Virus record (IMG/VR): IMGVR_UViG_2541047682_000004
Source of the DNA: a virus
Taxonomy: Duplodnaviria; Heunggongvirae; Uroviricota; Caudoviricetes
Direction: 5' to 3' (one strand)
DNA length: 37,780 nucleotides
The notes below the pieces were generated by a model. That model was not told where the DNA came from, did no database searches, and saw only the letters and a list, made by a program, of their open reading frames with translations. Of the stretch, positions 1,422 through 19,221 are shown piece by piece. Position 1 is the first letter of the stretch. Each line of letters begins with the position of its first letter. The position numbers were made by a program, and so were the translations under genes.

Positions 1422-3893
1422 TTAAAAATCAGCCTGATTTGGGATCAGTTTTTGCCAGATAGCTGAAACGTATTTTGCCTGGTAACGGGCGTCATCAAGT
1501 GCATTATGGCGCTCACCTTCGAATGGAATAGCCGTTCTGGCATCGAAGTCTATGGCTTTCCCCAGCTCAACGATTGTGCGTACATCGCGATCGTTGTAGT
1601 AACGCCACGGGCAGGGGATCCCCTGCCGTTCGTATGAACGGCGCAAAATCGTGTTGTCGAAGTTGGCTCCATTTCCCCAAACCTGAACAAAAAATTCACC
1701 GGAGTTTTCGTCGATAAATTCCCGCAATTGTAACAGTGCATCATCTAACGGGATTTCATCGGTCATAATGGCAGATTGCGCTTCGCGTGATTGCTTAAGC
1801 CACCATTTAATGGTGTCCCGATCAATGACTCCGCCAGCAGTTTCCAGATCGATAGTCTTACTAAATTCCGGTCCCATATCTCCGGTTTGCGGATCGAAAA
1901 ATATTGCACCTATTGAGATGATCGGGGCATCAGGATTTTTTCCCATGGTTTCAAGGTCGATCATTAGATGGTCACACGTCCTGCTGGTGGATGTGATTTC
2001 GTGATGACCGTTCACCTTAATTGGGTGATCTGCCGTCTCGCCAGTTTCATTATCGCTATTGTGATGCTGATTGCCGCCAGTGTTCTCCTTGTGTGGATGT
2101 TCAGCGCCTTCCATTTCCTCCGGATCATCTTCCTGAACTTCAACCTGATACTCTTCATCGAATGTTTCTTGGTATGTTGCGTCGCCCATCACCGCGCCAC
2201 AATCAGGACAGTTGCCGCCGCCGGTCTGACCGCAGGCGGTGCAGGCTTTTTCCACTTCCTGGTGCGCCACTGGTTCAGGCTGTTTCGTTTCTGGCTCGTT
2301 TTGTAACGCATTTGGACTGTTTTGTTCCGCTTTTTGGTAGTTCCGTTCCGATTCATGCTGGTTCTGGCTCACAGAATCGCGGGTCTGGATCCCCTTAATC
2401 CATTTCGGATCATTCGGGTCACTAATCCCTTCAACAAATTCACCACGTGATGCAGCAAGCAACTTATCGGCGTCAGGCTGGCTGATATTGGCTGCCTGCA
2501 TAATTTTGTTTACTTCGTCAGCGGTAACTTTTATCGGCTCTGGTTGTTCTGAATCTTCAGCGGTATCTACATTTTGCGGTAAGCCCGTGTATGTGCCATT
2601 TTTTCGGGCAAAATATTCTTCTTTTGTGATTTCAGTGGCGCCAGCAGCCAGTGCCTTATCCAGACCAGAAAGTTTGTTTGCGCGACCGTATTTTTCTCCG
2701 TCCTTATCTGCGAAGAGGAAATAGAACGGCCCCTCACGCTCTACAGATGGTTCAGCTTCCGGCGCGGTTTCATTTTTTGGGATATCAGATACCTCAGTTT
2801 CCACTGCATCAGTTTGTGTTTCTGATGACTGGAGAACATCAACAGTGCCCAGGTCTGTTTCTTCATTCTCAAACACGCCCTTTGTCGTCAGGTATTCGCA
2901 GATATATTTGTTCAGTGCTACGGGATCTTTGTGAATGTCGATCGGACGCTCACGGACAAGGCCAAAAATAGTTTGGCGGTCGTAGCGAAGGGCATCAGGC
3001 TGTTTGCGCATTGATGCCGAGATACGCTTCCAGTCTTCGCGGTCGTTGTCGATAACTTCTTTTTTTGCCCAGCGATGGATGCTGCCGTCAATGTTTCCGG
3101 CATCCACATCACCAGGCCAGAGAGCGTAGGCCAGTTCGTCATCCAGTGTTTTCCATGTCTGCTTGTATTCGCGATGAATGGCAGCAATGACCGGGCTGAT
3201 TTTTCCTGTTGAATTTTCAGTGTACTGTTGATTGGCTCTGGCGCGGGCGAGATCAACAACAGACGTGTATTTTCCGGTTTCCTTGCGTTCACCTTCGCGA
3301 CGTTTTTTCCAGATGCGCATCTCTGCCTGAATTTCGGGCCATTTAGCACCAGGAATACATTTATGCTTAACCCACCCAATGGCGTGCAACTTAAGCTCCG
3401 GATACATGGCGTTAACTTCTGGCATTTTCATCAACGCTTCAACGATATGTCCGTCGAATGTTGCCATGTCTTCCTGCAACAATTCCTGTGCGCTAATAAC
3501 CATATCAACGGTGATGTTTTCACATGTGTCGAACTTAACCATGACAGCGTTCTGTACTTCAGGGGCCAGCTTGTCAAAAGTGACGTTCATCGGATCGGAT
3601 TCAGTCTCGACCGGAACAAAGGAAGCAGACGCCTCATCCCAGCGGTTTTCCTGCATATATTCAGCATCCCAGGAATCGAGGGCAGGGCGGGGTATACCGG
3701 GTTTATCCTCGCAAACAAGAAATTTATAAGCGCAGTCCTGAGCAGCCGGATAATGTTCCAGGAATTGCCAGTGAAATTTTGCGCGGGCGCGACGTTCATC
3801 ACCGGCTTCAATGGCAGTGGCTACAGCGACGGCACCTTCTTCCTTTATTGCCTGTTCGTCCGGAATGGCGGCGCAAATAAAGACTTTACTCAT
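1422..3893 (-). CDS. large early-region exonuclease with C-terminal DnaQ-like DEDDh 3'-5' exonuclease domain (often annotated exodeoxyribonuclease VIII-like)
   Basis: 823 aa; C-terminal motifs DLETMG (Exo I), NGANFDNTIL (Exo II), HNALDDARYQAKY (Exo III, H-x4-D); central acidic low-complexity linker and a CxxC...CxxC zinc-ribbon (CTACGQ...CPDCG); GAGGT RBS upstream. Confidence 0.7.
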   Translation of the reverse strand: MSKVFICAAIPDEQAIKEEGAVAVATAIEAGDERRARAKFHWQFLEHYPAAQDCAYKFLVCEDKPGIPRPALDSWDAEYMQENRWDEASASFVPVETESDPMNVTFDKLAPEVQNAVMVKFDTCENITVDMVISAQELLQEDMATFDGHIVEALMKMPEVNAMYPELKLHAIGWVKHKCIPGAKWPEIQAEMRIWKKRREGERKETGKYTSVVDLARARANQQYTENSTGKISPVIAAIHREYKQTWKTLDDELAYALWPGDVDAGNIDGSIHRWAKKEVIDNDREDWKRISASMRKQPDALRYDRQTIFGLVRERPIDIHKDPVALNKYICEYLTTKGVFENEETDLGTVDVLQSSETQTDAVETEVSDIPKNETAPEAEPSVEREGPFYFLFADKDGEKYGRANKLSGLDKALAAGATEITKEEYFARKNGTYTGLPQNVDTAEDSEQPEPIKVTADEVNKIMQAANISQPDADKLLAASRGEFVEGISDPNDPKWIKGIQTRDSVSQNQHESERNYQKAEQNSPNALQNEPETKQPEPVAHQEVEKACTACGQTGGGNCPDCGAVMGDATYQETFDEEYQVEVQEDDPEEMEGAEHPHKENTGGNQHHNSDNETGETADHPIKVNGHHEITSTSRTCDHLMIDLETMGKNPDAPIISIGAIFFDPQTGDMGPEFSKTIDLETAGGVIDRDTIKWWLKQSREAQSAIMTDEIPLDDALLQLREFIDENSGEFFVQVWGNGANFDNTILRRSYERQGIPCPWRYYNDRDVRTIVELGKAIDFDARTAIPFEGERHNALDDARYQAKYVSAIWQKLIPNQADF

Positions 3894-4186: not shown

Positions 4187-4362
4187 CCTTTTTGTATCGG
4201 ACGTAAACGGGCCAACATTGAAAGAATGCATATTTTATTTAATAGCTCCCGTTCGTGTTTTCTCTTGTTAATGGCATCTTCAGTAAATACAGGGTTACTG
4301 ATAGTGACACCAATTTCAAAACAACCTTCAGACGTATTAACGTTTGGTAATAACGTTTCCAT
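4174..4362 (-). CDS. hypothetical protein (62 aa)
   Basis: ATG at 4362 preceded by GAGGA about 8 nt upstream; inside ORF 4174..4467. Confidence 0.25.
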   Translation of the reverse strand: METLLPNVNTSEGCFEIGVTISNPVFTEDAINKRKHERELLNKICILSMLARLRPIQKGCWQ

Positions 4363-4927
4363 TATCGCGTCCTCAACAATGAATTTTGTGATGCGGTGCC
4401 TGGTGCTTCCAGGTGACGTTAACCAGTTAACAATTAACGCCGGATACAGAGAATCCACCCATAACACTGTTTTTGGTTTTAACTGTTCCGCGTGCGCTTA
4501 GCCGCATTCACCGCATCACAAAATTCACTTTAAAAAGGGCGGCAGAGCAGTCACGGAGTAAAACTGATACCGCCAAACGTCACCAGAAAATTGATAACAG
4601 AGGGCGTTGCAGCGGGGTTGTCACTTAAGCGTATGGTCAACCTGACAACCCGGTGTCCTCAACGGTGGAAGGAATAACCCCGCCATACTTACCGCCGCGC
4701 CATTTCGCGGATTGCCACAACCGGAAGCGCACGGTCGACGAAAATTTAACGACAGGCTATCTATGAACCAGCTACCTCGCCGTGCGCTTTCGCGTTATGG
4801 TCTGACTTTTCAGGGAAATATCCTTTCAGTAAACTGTCAGTGCCGGATGCTCACCCGTGTCCGGCGCACGCACTCCACCTCACCCGTGGAGAACTCCTTA
4901 ATTACCAACCTTAGCTTCGTTGGTTAG

Positions 4928-11339: not shown

Positions 11340-11531
11340 CGGGAGTTAAGTAGAATTGCTGCGGGTGCTTGAGGCTATCTGCCTCAGGCATGAACACCAA
11401 AGGCAGATAGAGAAAAGCCCCAGTTAATATTACGCGTCCTGCAAGACGCTTAACATTAATCTGAGGCTCAATCTATGAACGGCAAATCTAGGTTAGCCTC
11501 TTACGTGCCGAAAGGCAAGGAGAAGCAGGCT
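11340..11531. promoter_or_regulatory. hok mRNA leader with stem-loops; expected location of the antisense sok-like RNA
   Basis: hairpin CTGAGGCTATCTGCCTCAG at about 11369-11390 and repeated TGAGGC before the hok start; by analogy with the hok/sok organisation. Confidence 0.4.
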
Positions 11532-11687
11532 ATGAAGCAGCAAAAGGCGATGTTAATCGCCCTGATCGTCATCTGTTTAACCGTCATAGTGACGGCACTG
11601 GTAACGAGGAAAGACCTCTGCGAGGTACGAATCCGAACCGGCCAGACGGAGGTCGCTGTCTTCACAGTTTACGAACCTGAGGAGTAA
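11532..11687 (+). CDS. hokD: Hok/Gef-family type I toxin (HokD/RelF-like)
   Basis: 51-aa product MKQQKAMLIALIVICLTVIVTALVTRKDLCEVRIRTGQTEVAVFTVYEPEE, near-identical to my recollection of E. coli HokD; in-frame upstream extension from 11475. Confidence 0.85.
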   Translation: MKQQKAMLIALIVICLTVIVTALVTRKDLCEVRIRTGQTEVAVFTVYEPEE

Positions 11688-13193: not shown

Positions 13194-13568
13194 ATGCTCA
13201 TAGATTTGGTTTTACCTTACCCGCCGACGGTGAACACTTACTGGCGACGCCGTGGCAGCACATATTTTATCTCGGAGGAGGGAAAGCGTTATCGCCGGGC
13301 TGTGGCGCTTATTGTTCGCCAGCAGCGGCTGAAATTAAGCCTGTCCGGAAGGCTGGCGATAAAGGTGATTGCAGAGCCACCGGATAAGCGTCGTCGCGAC
13401 CTGGACAATATCCTGAAAGCACCGCTGGATGCGCTGACGCATGCGGGAGTGTTAATGGACGATGAGCAGTTTGATGAAATCAATATCGTTCGTGGTCAGC
13501 CAGTATCTGGTGGACGTATGGGGGTGAAGATTTACCCCATAATGCATGAAGAGCAGGTCAAAAAATGA
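13194..13568 (+). CDS. rusA: RusA-family Holliday junction resolvase
   Basis: 124 aa; LPYPPTVNTYWRRRG and DKRRRDLDNILKAPLDAL match RusA signature; AAGAGGTGA RBS. Confidence 0.85.
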   Translation: MLIDLVLPYPPTVNTYWRRRGSTYFISEEGKRYRRAVALIVRQQRLKLSLSGRLAIKVIAEPPDKRRRDLDNILKAPLDALTHAGVLMDDEQFDEINIVRGQPVSGGRMGVKIYPIMHEEQVKK

Positions 13569-14386
13569 AACTGGAAGATTTACCGAAATACTACTCCCCA
13601 AAATCCCCTGGCCTGACCGATGCATCGGCCTCAACGTCAAAAGATGCGCTGAGTATCACTGATGTGATGGCCGCGCAGGGCATGACACAGAATCGGGCTG
13701 AGATGGGGTTTTCTGCGTTCCTGGGGAAAATGGGCATCAGTATGAATGACAGGGCGCGGGCAACAGAATTACTGGCAGATTATGCACTCAGTCGGTGCGA
13801 TCGTGTGGCGGCGTTGAGAAAACTTCCGGCAGAAATAAAACCGGTAGTGATGCGCATTATGGCTTCGTATGCGTTTGAAGATTATGCCCGTAGCGCGGCG
13901 AGCAAAAAACAGTGCCCTTGCTGTCACGGAAAAAAATTTATTGAAAGCGAGGTTTTTACAAACAAGATCCAGTATCCGGATGGTAAGCCACCAGTGTGGG
14001 CAAAGTGCACAAAAGGCGTGTATCCGTCTTACTGGGAAGAATGGAAAAAAGTCAGGGAGGTGGTAAAAGTTGCCTGTCCGGAGTGTGGCGGAAAGGGTGA
14101 GGTTTCCACCGCCTGTAAGGATTGCCGTGGGCGTGGTGTCGCCATTCATCGTGAAGAGTCGGTAAAACGTGGTATGCCTGTTATCAGAGATTGCCAGCGT
14201 TGTGGTGGTCGTGGCTGTGAAAGGCTGCCATCAACGGAGGCATTTAATGCCATATGCAAAGTGACGAGTGCTATCACGCTTGATACGTGGAAAAAATCAG
14301 TGAAACGCTTTTACGATACGTTGGTGGTTCGGTTTGACATTGAAGAGGCATGGGCGGAGCGGCAGTTAAAGAGGGTAACGCGATAG
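13565..14386 (+). CDS. Q: late-gene antiterminator Q (lambda Q family, with extra CxxC repeats)
   Basis: N-terminal similarity to lambda Q (YSPKSP..., DVMAAQGM, ASYAFEDYARSAA, CPCCHGKK); ATGA overlap with rusA stop; immediately upstream of a lambda-like PR'/tR'. Confidence 0.8.
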   Translation: MKLEDLPKYYSPKSPGLTDASASTSKDALSITDVMAAQGMTQNRAEMGFSAFLGKMGISMNDRARATELLADYALSRCDRVAALRKLPAEIKPVVMRIMASYAFEDYARSAASKKQCPCCHGKKFIESEVFTNKIQYPDGKPPVWAKCTKGVYPSYWEEWKKVREVVKVACPECGGKGEVSTACKDCRGRGVAIHREESVKRGMPVIRDCQRCGGRGCERLPSTEAFNAICKVTSAITLDTWKKSVKRFYDTLVVRFDIEEAWAERQLKRVTR

Positions 14387-14466: not shown

Positions 14467-14491
14467 ACCCCGCCGCCTGGCGGGTTTTTTA
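14467..14491 (+). terminator. tR'-like intrinsic terminator
   Basis: CCCGCC-GCCT-GGCGGG hairpin followed by TTTTTT. Confidence 0.75.
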
Positions 14492-16057: not shown

Positions 16058-16133
16058 GGCCCTTTAGCTCAGTGGTGAGAGCGAGCGACTCATAATCGCC
16101 AGGTCGCTGGTTCAAATCCAGCAAGGGCCACCA
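16058..16133 (+). tRNA. ileZ: tRNA-Ile2 (anticodon CAT, ileX/ileZ-like) or tRNA-Met
   Basis: 76-nt cloverleaf folded by hand: 7-bp acceptor GGCCCTT/AAGGGCC, anticodon loop CTCATAA, T-loop TTCAAAT, encoded CCA; resembles E. coli ileX. Confidence 0.85.
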
Positions 16134-16140
16134 TCACATA

Positions 16141-16217
16141 CCGCCATTAGCTCATCAGGAAAGAGCGCCAGCCTTCGAAGCTGGTTGCGCGGAGTTCGGG
16201 TCCCCGAAGGCGGTCCA
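16141..16217 (+). tRNA. tRNA-like gene, possibly tRNA-Arg (anticodon TCG by position); degenerate
   Basis: cloverleaf possible with anticodon stem CCAGC/GCTGG and loop CTTCGAA, but acceptor and T-stem each have a mismatch and the T-loop is non-canonical (TTCGGGT); may be a pseudogene. Confidence 0.4.
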
Positions 16218-16230
16218 TTATCTGTATCCT

Positions 16231-16307
16231 GCGTTGTTAGCTCAGCCGGACAGAGCAATTGCCTTCTAAGCAATCGGTCACTGGTTCGAATCCAGTACAA
16301 CGCGCCA
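16231..16307 (+). tRNA. argO: tRNA-Arg (anticodon TCT, argU/argO-like)
   Basis: 77 nt; perfect 7-bp acceptor GCGTTGT/ACAACGC, anticodon loop CTTCTAA, T-loop TTCGAAT, encoded CCA. Confidence 0.85.
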
Positions 16308-16412
16308 CACTTATTTTCCCTGGCTCGCTTTTGCGGGCTTTTTTTTAAATGTCTCACAATTCAGGCGGTTGACTGTTGTCTGGTTTGCGGGGAGTTTGTT
16401 AAAAGAAACTGG

Positions 16413-16566
16413 CATGGTGAATCCCCCTGTGCGGAGGGGCAATCAGCGAGTAGGTATATGGGATAATCGCGGATTCAGGTGCTGGTACTGAATTCACCGG
16501 GAGGCACCCGGCACCATGCAATGGCACATAGCGCCACTCTCCAGCCCCTCTCCGGAGGGGCTTTTC
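16413..16566 (+). ncRNA. candidate structured small RNA, unit 1
   Basis: conserved 5' box CATGGTGAATCCCCCTGNGCGGAGGGGC, internal CACCGGGAGGCACCCGGCACCATG (complementary to the 5' CATGGTG), ends in GCCCCTC-TCCG-GAGGGGC plus T-run; upstream TTGACT and TGTTAAAAG. Confidence 0.3.
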
Positions 16567-16756
16567 TGTGCCGGATACATCACAGTTTCTGGAACCTTAG
16601 GTACTACAGTATCAGTCAGGGTGCTATATTTTCAGATGTGATGAAAGCCTGTCAGCAGGCAGGGCGTATCGGAAATGACCCAGTAGAGAAAACGTTGACT
16701 CAGATACCGGTGCTGAGTTACCGGGAAACCGGCATCACATGACCGCTATCCTTCCA

Positions 16757-16786
16757 GGCCCATCCGCTCCGGTGGGCCTTTTTACT
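16757..16786 (+). terminator. intrinsic terminator
   Basis: GGCCCATCCG-CTCC-GGTGGGCC hairpin followed by TTTTT. Confidence 0.55.
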
Positions 16787-16880
16787 GCAGAAAACAGGTT
16801 CCCCGTTAAATGCTATGTTGCTCACAATTCAGTAAGTTGACAGTTGCCTGTCAGACTGGGCATTTGTTAAAAAAATTTCG

Positions 16881-17053
16881 CATGGTGAATCCCCCTGAGC
16901 GGAGGGGCGACTGGTGACGGTATAATCTCTGATTATCAAAACGAGAATGACGCGGGTTTAGTGGCACCGGGCTGAACTCACCGGGAGGCACCCGGCACCA
17001 TGTGCATGATGATACAGATACGCGGCTTTAGCCCCTCTCCGGAGGGGTTTTCT
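16881..17053 (+). ncRNA. candidate structured small RNA, unit 2 (paralog of unit 1)
   Basis: same conserved 5' box, internal CACCGGGAGGCACCCGGCACCATG and terminal CCCCTC-TCCG-GAGGGG terminator, with a divergent middle; upstream CTCACAATTCAG..GTTGACA..TTTGTTAAAA as in unit 1. Confidence 0.3.
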
Positions 17054-17282
17054 TGTGGGCAAAAAAAGCCCGCGCTGGGAGACGCGGGCGGCAAGGAATA
17101 AACAATAAAACGTGAAGTAATATTTCAGCTGGCGAATAATACCCCATAGTAATCACTCTGCGCAACTGCGCGGTCTTTTTCGAATTGCGGGCTGTCGTCT
17201 CTCTTCTGCCATTGTCCTGTAACTTCCGGACTTCAGCCCGCTCCTTATTTTACTCACAATATTATCCCGGCCGGGAGGATTC

Positions 17283-17510
17283 ATGGCATTTAAACACTAT
17301 GACGTGGTCAGGGCGGTATCGCCGTCAGACCTTGCGAAACGACTGACACAAAAACTGAAGGAGGGCTGGCAGCCGTTTGGTAGTCCGGTGGCCATAACCC
17401 CTTATACCCTGATGCAGGCGATTGCAGCAGAAGGTGATGTGGTGGTCAGTGGTGCAACTGAGCCGGATTGGTACTACGTCATCGTACTGGCCCGGCATTC
17501 CAGGCCATAA
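17283..17510 (+). CDS. hypothetical small protein upstream of the holin (possibly DUF1737-like)
   Basis: 75-aa ORF with GGGAGGA RBS; position typical of small conserved ORFs preceding lysis genes. Confidence 0.55.
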   Translation: MAFKHYDVVRAVSPSDLAKRLTQKLKEGWQPFGSPVAITPYTLMQAIAAEGDVVVSGATEPDWYYVIVLARHSRP

Positions 17511-18686: not shown

Positions 18687-19221
18687 ATGAACGCAAAAAT
18701 CAAATACGGCCTGTCAGCTGCAGTTCTGGCGCTGATTGGAGCAGGCGCATCAGCTCCTCAGATACTTGACCAGTTTCTGGATGAAAAAGAGGGTAACCAC
18801 ACTACGGCATACCGCGATGGTTCCGGCAACTGGACCATCTGTCGGGGGGGCCACGATGGTGGATGGAAAACCCGTTTTTCCCGGTATGAAACTGTCGAAG
18901 GAAAAATGCGACCAGGTCAACGCCATTGAGCGTGATAAGGCGCTGGCATGGGTGGAGAAAAACATCAAAGTGCCATTGAGCGAACCCCAGAAAGCGGGGA
19001 TCGCGTCATTCTGTCCGTACAACATTGGTCCCGGTAAGTGTTTCCCGTCGACGTTTTATAAACGAATTAATGCAGGTGATCGCAGGGGAGCGTGTGAGGC
19101 GATTCGCTGGTGGATTAAGGACGGTGGCAGAGACTGCCGTATTCGTTCAAACAACTGCTACGGTCAGGTATCCCGTCGTGACCAGGAGAGCGCGCTGGCG
19201 TGCTGGGGTATCGACAGATAA
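18687..19221 (+). pseudogene. R: SAR endolysin (lysozyme-like), interrupted by a frameshift in a G7 homopolymer at 18844-18850
   Basis: N-terminal SAR segment (LSAAVLALIGAGASA) and E...D...T catalytic context in frame 1 (ORF 18687..18929); rest of the lysozyme domain in ORF 18736..19221; removing one G restores a 177-aa product. Confidence 0.7.

Follow-up and report, generated by a model that had tools for sequence, protein, structure and literature searches.

Tandem small RNA genes of the STnc100 family before the lysis genes of a prophage, with a divergent third copy and a covarying pseudoknot

Introduction

The window analysed in this report is a stretch of 37,780 nucleotides (nt) of a virus of the class Caudoviricetes (IMG/VR record IMGVR_UViG_2541047682_000004), a prophage of the type found in extraintestinal pathogenic Escherichia coli (ExPEC), and the subject is an array of small RNA (sRNA) genes located in it between a tRNA cluster and the lysis genes. 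A preliminary description, made from the bare sequence, had noticed two repeated units there. These units, called units 1 and 2 below, are members of the STnc100 family (RF02076 in Rfam), and a third, divergent relative lies between them. The array as a whole is probably composed of three separately transcribed, Hfq-associated and trans-acting sRNAs of the STnc100/PasD kind, together with a convergent sRNA of the EcOnc08 type on the opposite strand. The finding of two units is itself already known, because both of them belong to a curated family and are nearly identical to RNAs which have been detected experimentally. What this analysis may add is the third paralogue, which scores below the family threshold, the recognition of probable promoter DNA in the Rfam model, a covarying pseudoknot, and the breadth of distribution within the Enterobacterales, including leader-like sites outside prophages. 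STnc100, a Gammaproteobacterial sRNA, was first listed as a candidate in Salmonella.

Few groups of prophage sRNAs are as abundant in pathogenic E. coli as the STnc100 family, and an ExPEC prophage which carries three paralogues and a convergent partner is a convenient system for probing the role of these RNAs. In addition, the covarying pseudoknot and the spread beyond E. coli offer handles for mutagenesis and comparative work.

Units 1 and 2 and their published relatives

Both units open with CTCACAATTCAG..GTTGAC..TTTGTTAAAA (from 16353 and from 16821), continue with CATGGTGAATCCCCCTG(T/A)GCGGAGGGGC, a divergent middle and CTGAA(T/C)TCACCGGGAGGCACCCGGCACCATG, and close with CCCCTCTCCGGAGGGG and a T-run. 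All of these features were found where the preliminary description had placed them, including the complementarity of CATGGTG (16413-16419 and 16881-16887) to CACCATG (16512-16518 and its equivalent in unit 2). The mean column identity of the two aligned units is 79%, in sharply alternating blocks: 71% upstream, 97% in the 5' strand of the closing helix (P1) and the first hairpin (P2), 26% in the variable middle, 67% in the segment of P4 and the pseudoknot, 95% in the CCGGG hairpin (P5) and the 3' closing strand, 35% in the tail and 88% in the terminator. The interiors differ by insertions and deletions which do not preserve a reading frame.

When the whole window was compared with Rfam 15, units 1 and 2 matched RF02076 with 136.3 bits at 16383-16573 (E = 4e-30) and with 161 bits at 16851-17060 (E = 2e-36), respectively, both matches spanning all model positions from 1 to 206 and both lying above the curated gathering score of 47 bits. 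STnc100 is therefore the RNA family which the preliminary description could not name. The two units share with RF02076 the closing helix, the CCCCU/AGGGG hairpin, P4, the CCGGG/CCCGG hairpin, the terminator and the prophage context, and they are unlike its consensus in the pseudoknot which is supported below. Both pairings proposed in the preliminary description, CATGGTG/CACCATG and CCGGG/CCCGG, are among the helices of that consensus.

A number of family members have been studied by experiment. In the O157 strain EDL933, STnc100 is present in 11 copies, all of them with RNA-seq reads, and STnc100_4 was confirmed by Northern blotting (PMC5331693). Hfq crosslinking in the O157 strain Sakai located, in at least eight prophages, pairs of convergent Hfq-binding sRNAs, which in these lambdoid prophages lie between PR' (with or without a moron) and the open reading frame (ORF) upstream of the lysis genes (PMC4104026); a review terms these pairs 'dyads' and calls their logic unclear (PMC7873438). 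EcOnc05 (prophage Sp4, about 222 nt), EcOnc06 (Sp17, about 177 nt) and EcOnc27 were recovered by crosslinking and analysis of cDNA with Hfq (Hfq-CRAC) and were seen on Northern blots, and the 247-nt EcOnc27 was destabilised in a delta-hfq strain (PMC4104026). The Northern probe for EcOnc05 is the perfect complement of 16441-16475 in unit 1 (35/35) and that for EcOnc06 matches 16454-16488 with one mismatch (34/35), so that unit 1 is the same type of RNA as EcOnc05 and EcOnc06. Moreover, Sakai Sp4 carries one STnc100 copy of 138 bits, which encloses the EcOnc05 crosslinking peak, and the quantitative PCR primers for 'STnc_100' in outer-membrane vesicles of Shiga toxin-producing E. coli (PMC12370729) match unit 1 exactly.

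Unit 2 together with its 3' flank is 92% identical to a segment of an Stx2a phage which starts about 40 nt after stx2B, and the STnc100 unit of the Stx2 phage (185.7 bits) lies 75 nt after stx2B. The placement of the units by the preliminary description at the site where Stx phages and others carry morons is thus correct, and unit 2 stands in the same position as EcOnc27/sRNA103 of Stx2 phages. Its variable region, however, differs from that of EcOnc27 in Sakai Sp5, since the probe sequence of the latter is absent from the window. Furthermore, unlike EcOnc05, EcOnc06 and EcOnc27, each of which is a single unit, the three units stand in tandem, and they do so in an ExPEC-type prophage without stx. 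The units are also mosaic: the Stx2-phage unit combines a tail identical to that of unit 1 with a 5' half which matches unit 2.

The prophages of B2/ExPEC strains (NU14, UM146, ATCC 11775 and others) are identical to the window over 1.8 kb (100% identity). According to a Pfam scan and the RefSeq annotation of the identical locus, the order of genes is the Q antiterminator (PF03589), a small ORF, a DNA methylase, three tRNAs, the RNA array, DUF1737, a holin, DUF1327, an endolysin and Rz. The array consequently has Q/PR' and the moron on one side and, before the lysis genes, a conserved hypothetical ORF on the other, and a convergent sRNA gene stands on the opposite strand, as in the published dyads. 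RefSeq annotates zero ncRNA over the array of the identical locus, and has instead a partial pseudo 'hypothetical protein' opposite unit 1 (16402-16527, minus strand; 4503-4628 of the retrieved locus L001), which is probably spurious because it is without a Pfam match and is situated inside a covarying RNA. Known sRNA genes are thus left unannotated there. The preliminary description had allowed only ORFs of 11-13 codons in the units, which proved too low: mechanical ORFs of 40-87 amino acids overlap them (for example, 16479-16742 on the plus strand), one being an 87-amino-acid ORF with a GTG start, and a Pfam scan of the ORFs overlapping the units gave zero matches.

Conserved structure and the pseudoknot

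Homologues were retrieved by an exact-pattern scan for a 17-nt hairpin core with one genome per species, which gave 120 loci; nhmmer found 71 copies in 55 of these, all in Enterobacterales. Covariation was measured with 58 distinct cores on a MAFFT alignment which was not fitted to the structure, and this avoids a bias towards the structure. The sequences are related, and two kinds of controls were used: the shuffle controls are without correction for phylogeny, and the slide controls, in which the partners are displaced by 1-3 columns, correct for it. For the whole structure 86.2% of the cells are paired versus 39-48% with the slid partners, and the covariation score is 0.320 versus 0.153 after shuffling (0/500 reached it). 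Among the individual helices, P1, which contains the CATGGTG/CACCATG pairing proposed in the preliminary description, has 98.3% of its cells paired across genera and two-sided changes at four of its six pairs; for P4 the figures are 91.5% and all six pairs, and for P2 they are 87% and three of five. The invariance of P5 (CCGGG/CCCGG) is uninformative, because the homologues were retrieved by an exact pattern within P5. Substitutions keep base pairs, including G-U pairs which are sensible only in RNA of the plus strand. The preliminary description had read the units as sRNA genes whose ends pair in a conserved manner around a variable interior and which carry a promoter and a terminator of their own; covariation supports this view, as do RF02076 and the published RNAs.

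In addition to the nested helices there is a helix which is absent from Rfam. A segment of 5-8 nt located 2-4 nt past the first hairpin pairs with the loop of P4 to form an H-type pseudoknot. Unit 1 pairs AUCAGCG with UGCUGGU, unit 2 CUGGUG with CACCGG, and the middle unit GUAUCGG with CCGGUGC; 59 distinct pairs were collected overall. In a fixed-register test the cognate strands of the pseudoknot form 6.13 contiguous pairs versus 4.56 for non-cognate strands (0/2000 permutations), and those of P4 form 7.10 versus 4.72 (0/2000 permutations). On the MAFFT alignment the pseudoknot alone is 69.7% paired versus 28-48% when slid, and its covariation is 0.39 versus 0.17 (0/500). It is retained in PasD, a related sRNA (AAUGAUC/GAUCAUU), and is shown neither in the Rfam structure nor in that of a 2026 preprint obtained with RNAalifold (10.64898/2026.05.13.724894).

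Single-sequence minimum free energy (MFE) folds made with ViennaRNA reproduce the nested helices of unit 1 (z = -2.4) and of the middle unit (z = -2.5). For unit 2 (16880-17056), z of the full-length MFE fold is only -0.9, and the comparative structure is replaced there by pairing of the CCCCCU strand of the first hairpin with the GGAGGGG strand of the terminator. In the E. coli units these two hairpins nearly duplicate each other, and in other genera they are unrelated; a conserved riboswitch-like switch by exchange of strands between P2 and the terminator was considered for this reason and rejected, because the terminators of other genera are unrelated to P2.

Predicted promoters, start sites and transcript ends

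The GTTGAC motif which the preliminary description took for promoter-like is present in both units, but its TTGAC hexamer is 25 nt from the -10-like TAAAAR and is too distant for a -35 element. TTGTCT and TTGCCT in units 1 and 2, respectively, stand at the proper spacing of 18 nt, and they are the likely -35 elements. The upstream block of unit 2 is nearly identical to the block downstream of stx2B in the Stx2 phage.

PasD1 of E2348/69, an enteropathogenic E. coli (EPEC), has been mapped to 1060260-1060432 by RNA-seq coverage and Northern size (PMC8550237). It begins with the G of GCATGGTGAATCC (GCATGGTG), the base which opens P1, and its promoter reads TTGACT-N18-TAAAAA followed by 7 nt and the mapped +1. 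In units 1 and 2 there are 6 nt between the -10 and the same G of P1, that is, the register is that of PasD1, and from this shared register the starts are predicted at G16412 (unit 1), G16880 (unit 2) and about A16636 (middle unit). Transcription would then begin at the first base of P1 in each case, and the RNAs would be about 156, 149 and 175 nt long for unit 1, the middle unit and unit 2, respectively, with predicted 3' ends at about 16567, 16784 and 17054. The promoter signal in copies of other genera is moderate: in 23 of 57 copies a sigma-70-like match which keeps the register of the P1 start scores at least 8, versus 1-9 of about 56 at shifted positions. A terminator is found within 120 nt downstream in 23 of 60 copies versus 3 of 60 upstream. 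About 29 nt of the RF02076 model precede the likely +1, and these first positions are probably promoter DNA. The terminator hairpins which the preliminary description had seen, that is, those ending the units, a third on the plus strand and one on the minus strand, were all recovered by a terminator scan. The last two are not mere flanks of the units, as had been thought, and belong to the third family member and to the convergent partner sRNA, respectively.

Variants located just downstream of stx2B and overlapping the STnc100 unit were the strongest predictors of haemolytic uraemic syndrome in a machine-learning study (PMC12711010). In the Stx2 phage locus (L002) the variants +90 (T/C) and +103 (delta-T) after stx2B fall within the predicted promoter of the STnc100 unit, the first in the extended -10 and the second in the few nucleotides between it and the predicted +1 (about 4321 and 4334 of L002, corresponding to about 16866 and 16878 of the window). 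Because they fall in these elements, they may alter transcription of the STnc100 unit.

The conserved upstream block also contains TCACA, possibly one half of a CRP site whose centre would be at -61.5, and the Stx2 phage has TGTAA-N6-TCACA. The units in the window keep only the half-site (8/10 matches), and a CRP site is not claimed.

The middle unit and its relation to PasD and IpeX

The preliminary description counted two units, which are confirmed, and overlooked a divergent one between them. In a search of a 281-nt stretch with permissive thresholds, RF02076 matched end to end at 16612-16785 with 30.1 bits (E = 4.8e-5), which is below the gathering score; the middle unit is therefore a divergent relative and not a curated member. 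It retains every helix of the family in different sequence, and the distance from its extended -10 to P1 is that of the other units.

Among 5426 complete E. coli genomes, 673 carry the middle unit, about half of them with at least 99% identity and about half as a variant of about 91%, and five phage records have it with 86% identity. In the 91% and 86% variants conservation begins at the promoter, the first hairpin has UCUGCC/GGCGGA in place of CCUGUC/GGCAGG, a U-G pair of the pseudoknot is replaced by U-A, and the terminator is made anew of other sequence. Moreover, the same array of three units (138, 30 and 134 bits) exists in a second lineage, E. coli Ecol_AZ147 (L127 1346-1681). That array is followed by an iraM (anti-adapter) moron on the opposite strand, which shows that the site accepts different morons beside the array.

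PasD1 and PasD2 of EPEC E2348/69 resemble the units in the window in their 5' end (GCAUGGUGAAUCC...), promoter register, P1, P2, P4 and pseudoknot, and they occupy the same prophage site upstream of the holin gene. They are without a full P5, and their tail with the seed UGUGAG is unrelated to the tails in the window. A common ancestry of PasD and STnc100 is stated in the preprint of Zhu, Shabalina and Storz (10.64898/2026.05.13.724894). PasD1 scores 37.7 bits on RF02076, so the middle unit is a comparably distant relative. The middle unit was examined as a candidate for PasD itself, and this was ruled out, since the true sequences of PasD1 and PasD2 align poorly outside the shared scaffold; in an alignment none of the three tails in the window resembles the PasD tail, including the UGUGAG seed.

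Another sRNA to be considered is IpeX of DLP12 and PA-2, which occupies a site of the same sort: it lies beside a porin moron, with Q on one side and the lysis genes on the other. IpeX was ruled out as a relative, and the remark on IpeX cargo in the preliminary description does not hold as homology: nhmmer with the STnc100 profile, a search by sequence profile only, found nothing at E up to 10 in K-12 572500-579500 (Q-nmpC-essD of DLP12).

The convergent partner

On the minus strand an sRNA gene of the EcOnc08/21/42 type, known from enterohaemorrhagic E. coli (EHEC), converges on unit 2. The EcOnc08/21/42 probe matches 17135-17169 with five mismatches and in the orientation which detects RNA of the minus strand. 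The 3' 50 nt of the partner align with the sRNA 'E2348C_1409.E2348C_1408.IGR' found in EPEC by sequencing of ligated interacting RNAs (RIL-seq), whose predicted seed CUUGCG precedes the same terminator. The two have in common, with the EcOnc08 type, the terminator GCCCGCGUCUCCC(A/U)GCGCGGGC-U7 and the preceding segment ..UUGUU.AUYCCUUGC.., and unlike the EPEC sRNA the seed region of the partner carries an insertion (CCUUGCCG versus CUUGCG). Its 5' end is uncertain, with a promoter-like site at 17289-17261 in a promoter scan. The best match of the element in Rfam is a weak one to OmrA-B (25 bits), and no family is assigned. The flank containing the partner is also present in the Stx2 phage, and in Sakai EcOnc08, for which Hfq-CRAC and Northern data likewise exist, comes immediately after EcOnc05 and converges on it. 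With its EcOnc08-type partner, the locus is consequently of the published dyad type, the plus-strand member being triplicated.

AsxR had been inferred at first as the partner from its published distance to stx2B, and this was rejected because the true sequences of AsxR, AgvB and EcOnc03 are absent from the window. The 3' sequence of about 42 nt of AsxR/AgvB (GUAUCUCAUGC..UUGCCCGAACCCAYUCGGGC) has zero matches within eight mismatches anywhere in the window, and the Rfam families RF02703 and RF02702 have zero matches at E up to 5. The likeness to the AsxR/AgvB dyads is one of layout, that is, a short minus-strand sRNA gene converging on an STnc100-type gene at the moron site. In Klebsiella grimontii (L043, about 4285-4370) a convergent hairpin of this same kind (gcaaaaaaaagcccgcatggtttcatgcaggc) comes after a prophage copy, so that the dyad layout may extend beyond Escherichia.

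Distribution outside this prophage

The core was found in Kosakonia, Enterobacter, Klebsiella, Raoultella, Salmonella diarizonae, Citrobacter, Pantoea, Erwinia, Rahnella and others. Homology across genera is limited to the core, from P1 to P1, and does not cover the tail. Clustering of ORFs and Pfam assignments of the neighbours on the same strand gave a Q-type antiterminator upstream at five loci and a holin and an endolysin downstream at seven loci, so the late-operon site is conserved well outside E. coli. With a 1.8-kb query which includes the tRNAs and the DUF1737 flank, up to 17 places per E. coli genome were matched.

At seven loci (L029, L056, L066, L074, L077, L092 and L105) of Kosakonia species, one Enterobacter and Klebsiella indica, the core lies 85-200 nt upstream of an operon of a KdgM porin and a periplasmic pectate lyase, for example at 3078-3205 on the minus strand of L074. 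A LuxR-type regulator diverges upstream, and the core is on the strand of the operon in a leader-like context unlike that of the prophage. In L074, the locus examined, a terminator between the core and kdgM was not found.

Tandem arrays are common: there are six copies on a Pantoea plasmid, five in Superficieibacter and three in several other genomes. The plasmid pAPP145_2 of Pantoea sp. App145 (L091 896-1984, L067 and L121) carries at least ten copies of the core, six of them within 1.1 kb, and some neighbouring pairs have nothing between them but a spacer containing TATAAT, without a terminator.

Proposed mechanism and alternatives

The mechanism which we favour is as follows. The array would be a head-to-tail arrangement at the lambdoid 'moron' site, unit 1 being of the EcOnc05/06 type, the middle unit divergent and unit 2 of the type found downstream of stx2B. 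Each gene would have a sigma-70 promoter with an extended -10 and a start at the first base of P1, and each RNA would fold into P1, P2, the pseudoknot between the segment adjacent to P2 and the P4 loop, P5, a variable single-stranded tail and its own terminator with a U-tail. In the lysogen the RNAs would bind Hfq and pair in trans with mRNAs or sRNAs of the host and the prophage by their variable parts, mainly by the 3' tail and perhaps by the variable P3 region, the conserved scaffold supplying stability and protein binding. Paralogues with different variable modules could thereby address different sets of targets, prophage recombination shuffling the modules, and during lytic growth the Q-modified RNA polymerase would read through the terminators. 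The seed most likely lies in the tail between P1 and the terminator, since the tails and middles differ between the paralogues, and since in PasD both the seed UGUGAG and the RIL-seq chimeras fall in the final 50 nt, past the core and ahead of the terminator (PMC8550237).

Several observations weigh against this mechanism. Across genera there is little or no variation in the unpaired scaffold nucleotides (GAAUC and the GCGG and AGGCA loops), and such a scaffold with varying putative targeting parts, unlike typical Hfq-dependent sRNAs in which the seed is most conserved, hints at a ligand or partner of the scaffold. Some copies in other genera are without a terminator and are positioned in front of genes. 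The RNA-seq levels of pasD1 and pasD2 are not significantly different (padj 0.26-0.83, taken as delta-hfq versus wild type), Hfq-dependent stability of PasD being reported on Northern blots (PMC8550237). On Northern blots EcOnc05 (about 222 nt) and EcOnc27 (about 235/247 nt) exceed the predicted 156-175 nt, and these larger species may come from extra upstream starts or from processing of longer transcripts. The mechanism also leaves aside the CTCACAATTCAG..TTGAC block, which is conserved although it precedes the inferred promoter. Finally, expression, Hfq binding and trans-action are ascribed to this ExPEC-type prophage by homology throughout.

Some of these points are those which would be expected if the pseudoknotted core were the functional part, binding a ligand or a conserved protein, with target pairing secondary or absent and with cis action in some genomes. 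This is unlikely, though it would account for several observations: for the P1-closed core with its covarying pseudoknot and with several of its unpaired nucleotides constant or nearly constant in 58 sequences of many genera, for homology which excludes the tail, for the position before the KdgM porin/pectate lyase operon at seven loci and without a terminator in L074, for the copies abutting without intervening terminators on the Pantoea plasmid, and for an intrinsic terminator 20-60 nt after the core, which is the layout of a transcription-terminating riboswitch. However, no riboswitch or protein-binding family of Rfam matches, most prophage copies have differing downstream genes and their own terminators, a conserved alternative pairing of core and terminator was not found (the similarity of P2 to the terminator being limited to the E. 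coli units), the invariance of P5 is an artefact of retrieval, and Hfq crosslinking and RIL-seq chimeras are documented for members of the family. A related idea, doubtful but worth stating, is that the STnc100/PasD core is a compact pseudoknotted domain with a function of its own beyond that of an Hfq scaffold, such as the binding of a conserved protein or a small molecule. If this were true, a core conserved across the Enterobacterales in prophages, plasmids and chromosomal leaders (e.g., that of kdgM-pectate lyase) would have been coupled by phages to interchangeable tails, and the pseudoknot would be the key to its function.

It is quite improbable that the array is mainly a transcriptional insulator whose terminators keep transcription begun at constitutive tRNA or moron promoters from entering the holin and endolysin genes in the lysogen and are ignored by Q-modified polymerase, the RNAs being by-products. 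Four plus-strand terminators between 16322 and 17049 and one minus-strand terminator do immediately precede the lysis cassette, with 15 terminator-like sites in the region versus 3.1 expected, and copies in several genera keep this place between Q/PR' and the lysis genes; yet a terminator needs neither its own promoter nor a covarying pseudoknotted domain of 100 nt nor a variable tail, RNAs of the family accumulate and bind Hfq, and copies exist away from lysis genes. Such a role could be compatible with that of sRNAs.

There is very little probability that the units code for small proteins or descend from a coding gene which has since decayed. The overlapping ORFs, the partial 'hypothetical protein' of RefSeq in unit 1 and the ribosome coverage above 1 and up to 3.2 of some STnc100 copies in EDL933 (PMC5331693) would fit this, but the ORFs are without Pfam matches, substitutions preserve pairs, indels break the frame, and the coverage ranges from 0 to 3.2 among near-identical copies (PMC5331693). 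Equally remote is a non-functional dispersed repeat, such as a miniature inverted-repeat transposable element (MITE) or an enterobacterial repetitive intergenic consensus (ERIC) sequence, or a recombination scar spreading among prophages: many copies per genome, tandem arrays and mosaic structure speak for it, and the stretch GTGAATCCCC presumably also ends the ERIC consensus, but the strand-specific covariation, the promoters in register with the structure, the terminators and the documented stable transcripts argue against it, and terminal inverted repeats or target-site duplications were not seen.

Features of the window

The coordinates of the array and its surroundings are collected in Table 1.

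Table 1. Positions of the sRNA genes, their predicted parts and neighbouring features in the window
Feature	Position	Strand	Basis or remark
Q antiterminator (PF03589)	13565-14386		Pfam scan, RefSeq of identical locus
tRNA cluster: Ile2-like CAT, Arg-TCG, Arg-TCT	16058-16307	+	tRNA calls, RefSeq
Intrinsic terminator ending tRNA cluster	16322-16347	+	terminator scan
Unit 1 upstream block	16353-16411	+	CTCACAATTCAG..TTGACT, then inferred promoter
Unit 1 inferred promoter	-35 TTGTCT 16376-16381; -10 TAAAAG 16400-16405	+	18-nt spacer with TG
Unit 1 sRNA, EcOnc05/EcOnc06 type, predicted about 156 nt	16412-16568	+	RF02076, probe matches, MFE fold
Unit 1 P1	16412-16419 / 16512-16519	+	
Unit 1 P2	about 16424-16439	+	
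Unit 1 pseudoknot	a 16442-16448 / a' 16480-16486	+	a' within loop of P4
Unit 1 P4	16471-16478 / 16488-16495	+	
Unit 1 P5	16497-16511	+	
Unit 1 tail	16520-16542	+	
Unit 1 terminator	16543-16562	+	followed by U-run; terminator scan
Middle unit extended -10	16622-16630	+	TGcTATATT; sequence, conservation begins just upstream in variants
Middle unit, predicted about 149 nt	16636-16785	+	RF02076 30.1 bits, compensatory variants, MFE fold
Middle unit P1	16636-16643 / 16733-16740	+	AUGUGAUG / CAUCACAU
Middle unit P2 (first hairpin)	within 16647-16664	+	within GCCUGUCAGCAGGC
Middle unit pseudoknot	16666-16672 / 16707-16713	+	GUAUCGG / CCGGUGC
Middle unit P4	16697-16703 / 16713-16719	+	CUCAG/CUGAG
Middle unit P5	16720-16732	+	ACCGGGAAACCGG
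Middle unit tail	16741-16755	+	
Middle unit terminator	16756-16779	+	followed by U5; 'third terminator' of the preliminary description; terminator scan
Unit 2 upstream block	16820-16879	+	CTCACAATTCAG..TTGACA, then inferred promoter
Unit 2 inferred promoter	-35 TTGCCT 16844-16849; -10 TAAAAA 16868-16873	+	18-nt spacer
Unit 2 sRNA, predicted about 175 nt	16880-17056	+	RF02076, Stx2 phage identity
Unit 2 tail	16988-17029	+	
Unit 2 terminator	17030-17049	+	followed by U-run; terminator scan
Convergent partner sRNA, EcOnc08/21/42 type	17060-17254	-	terminator and promoter scans, probe, EPEC homology
Partner 3' end (terminator)	17089-17068	-	followed by U7; candidate seed CCUUGCC directly 5' of it; terminator scan
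DUF1737	17283-17510		Pfam scan, RefSeq of identical locus

The tRNA at 16058-16133 is called tRNA-Met (CAT) by ARAGORN and tRNA-Ile by RefSeq, and is the ileZ-like tRNA of Stx-type phages, whose CAT anticodon reads Ile once it is modified with lysidine. About 85 nt past the Q gene there is a strong intrinsic terminator, CCCGCCGCCTGGCGGG + T6 (14469-14484, plus strand), at the place expected for PR'/tR', which is the position of the StxS sRNA in Stx phages. In the endolysin gene (18687-19221, rrrQ-like) a run of seven G at about 18850 stands against six in the otherwise matching NU14 prophage; the extra G causes a frameshift which splits the gene into two ORFs, and this reflects either a defective prophage or a homopolymer sequencing error.

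Two further RNAs were recognised by the Rfam scan. The first, at 11363-11537 on the plus strand, is a full-length match to the sok antitoxin RNA (RF01794, 113 bits) and implies a hok/sok-type toxin-antitoxin module in the early region of the prophage. The second, at 4537-4588 on the minus strand, is a full-length match to DicF (RF00039, 76.7 bits), another Hfq sRNA borne by a prophage.

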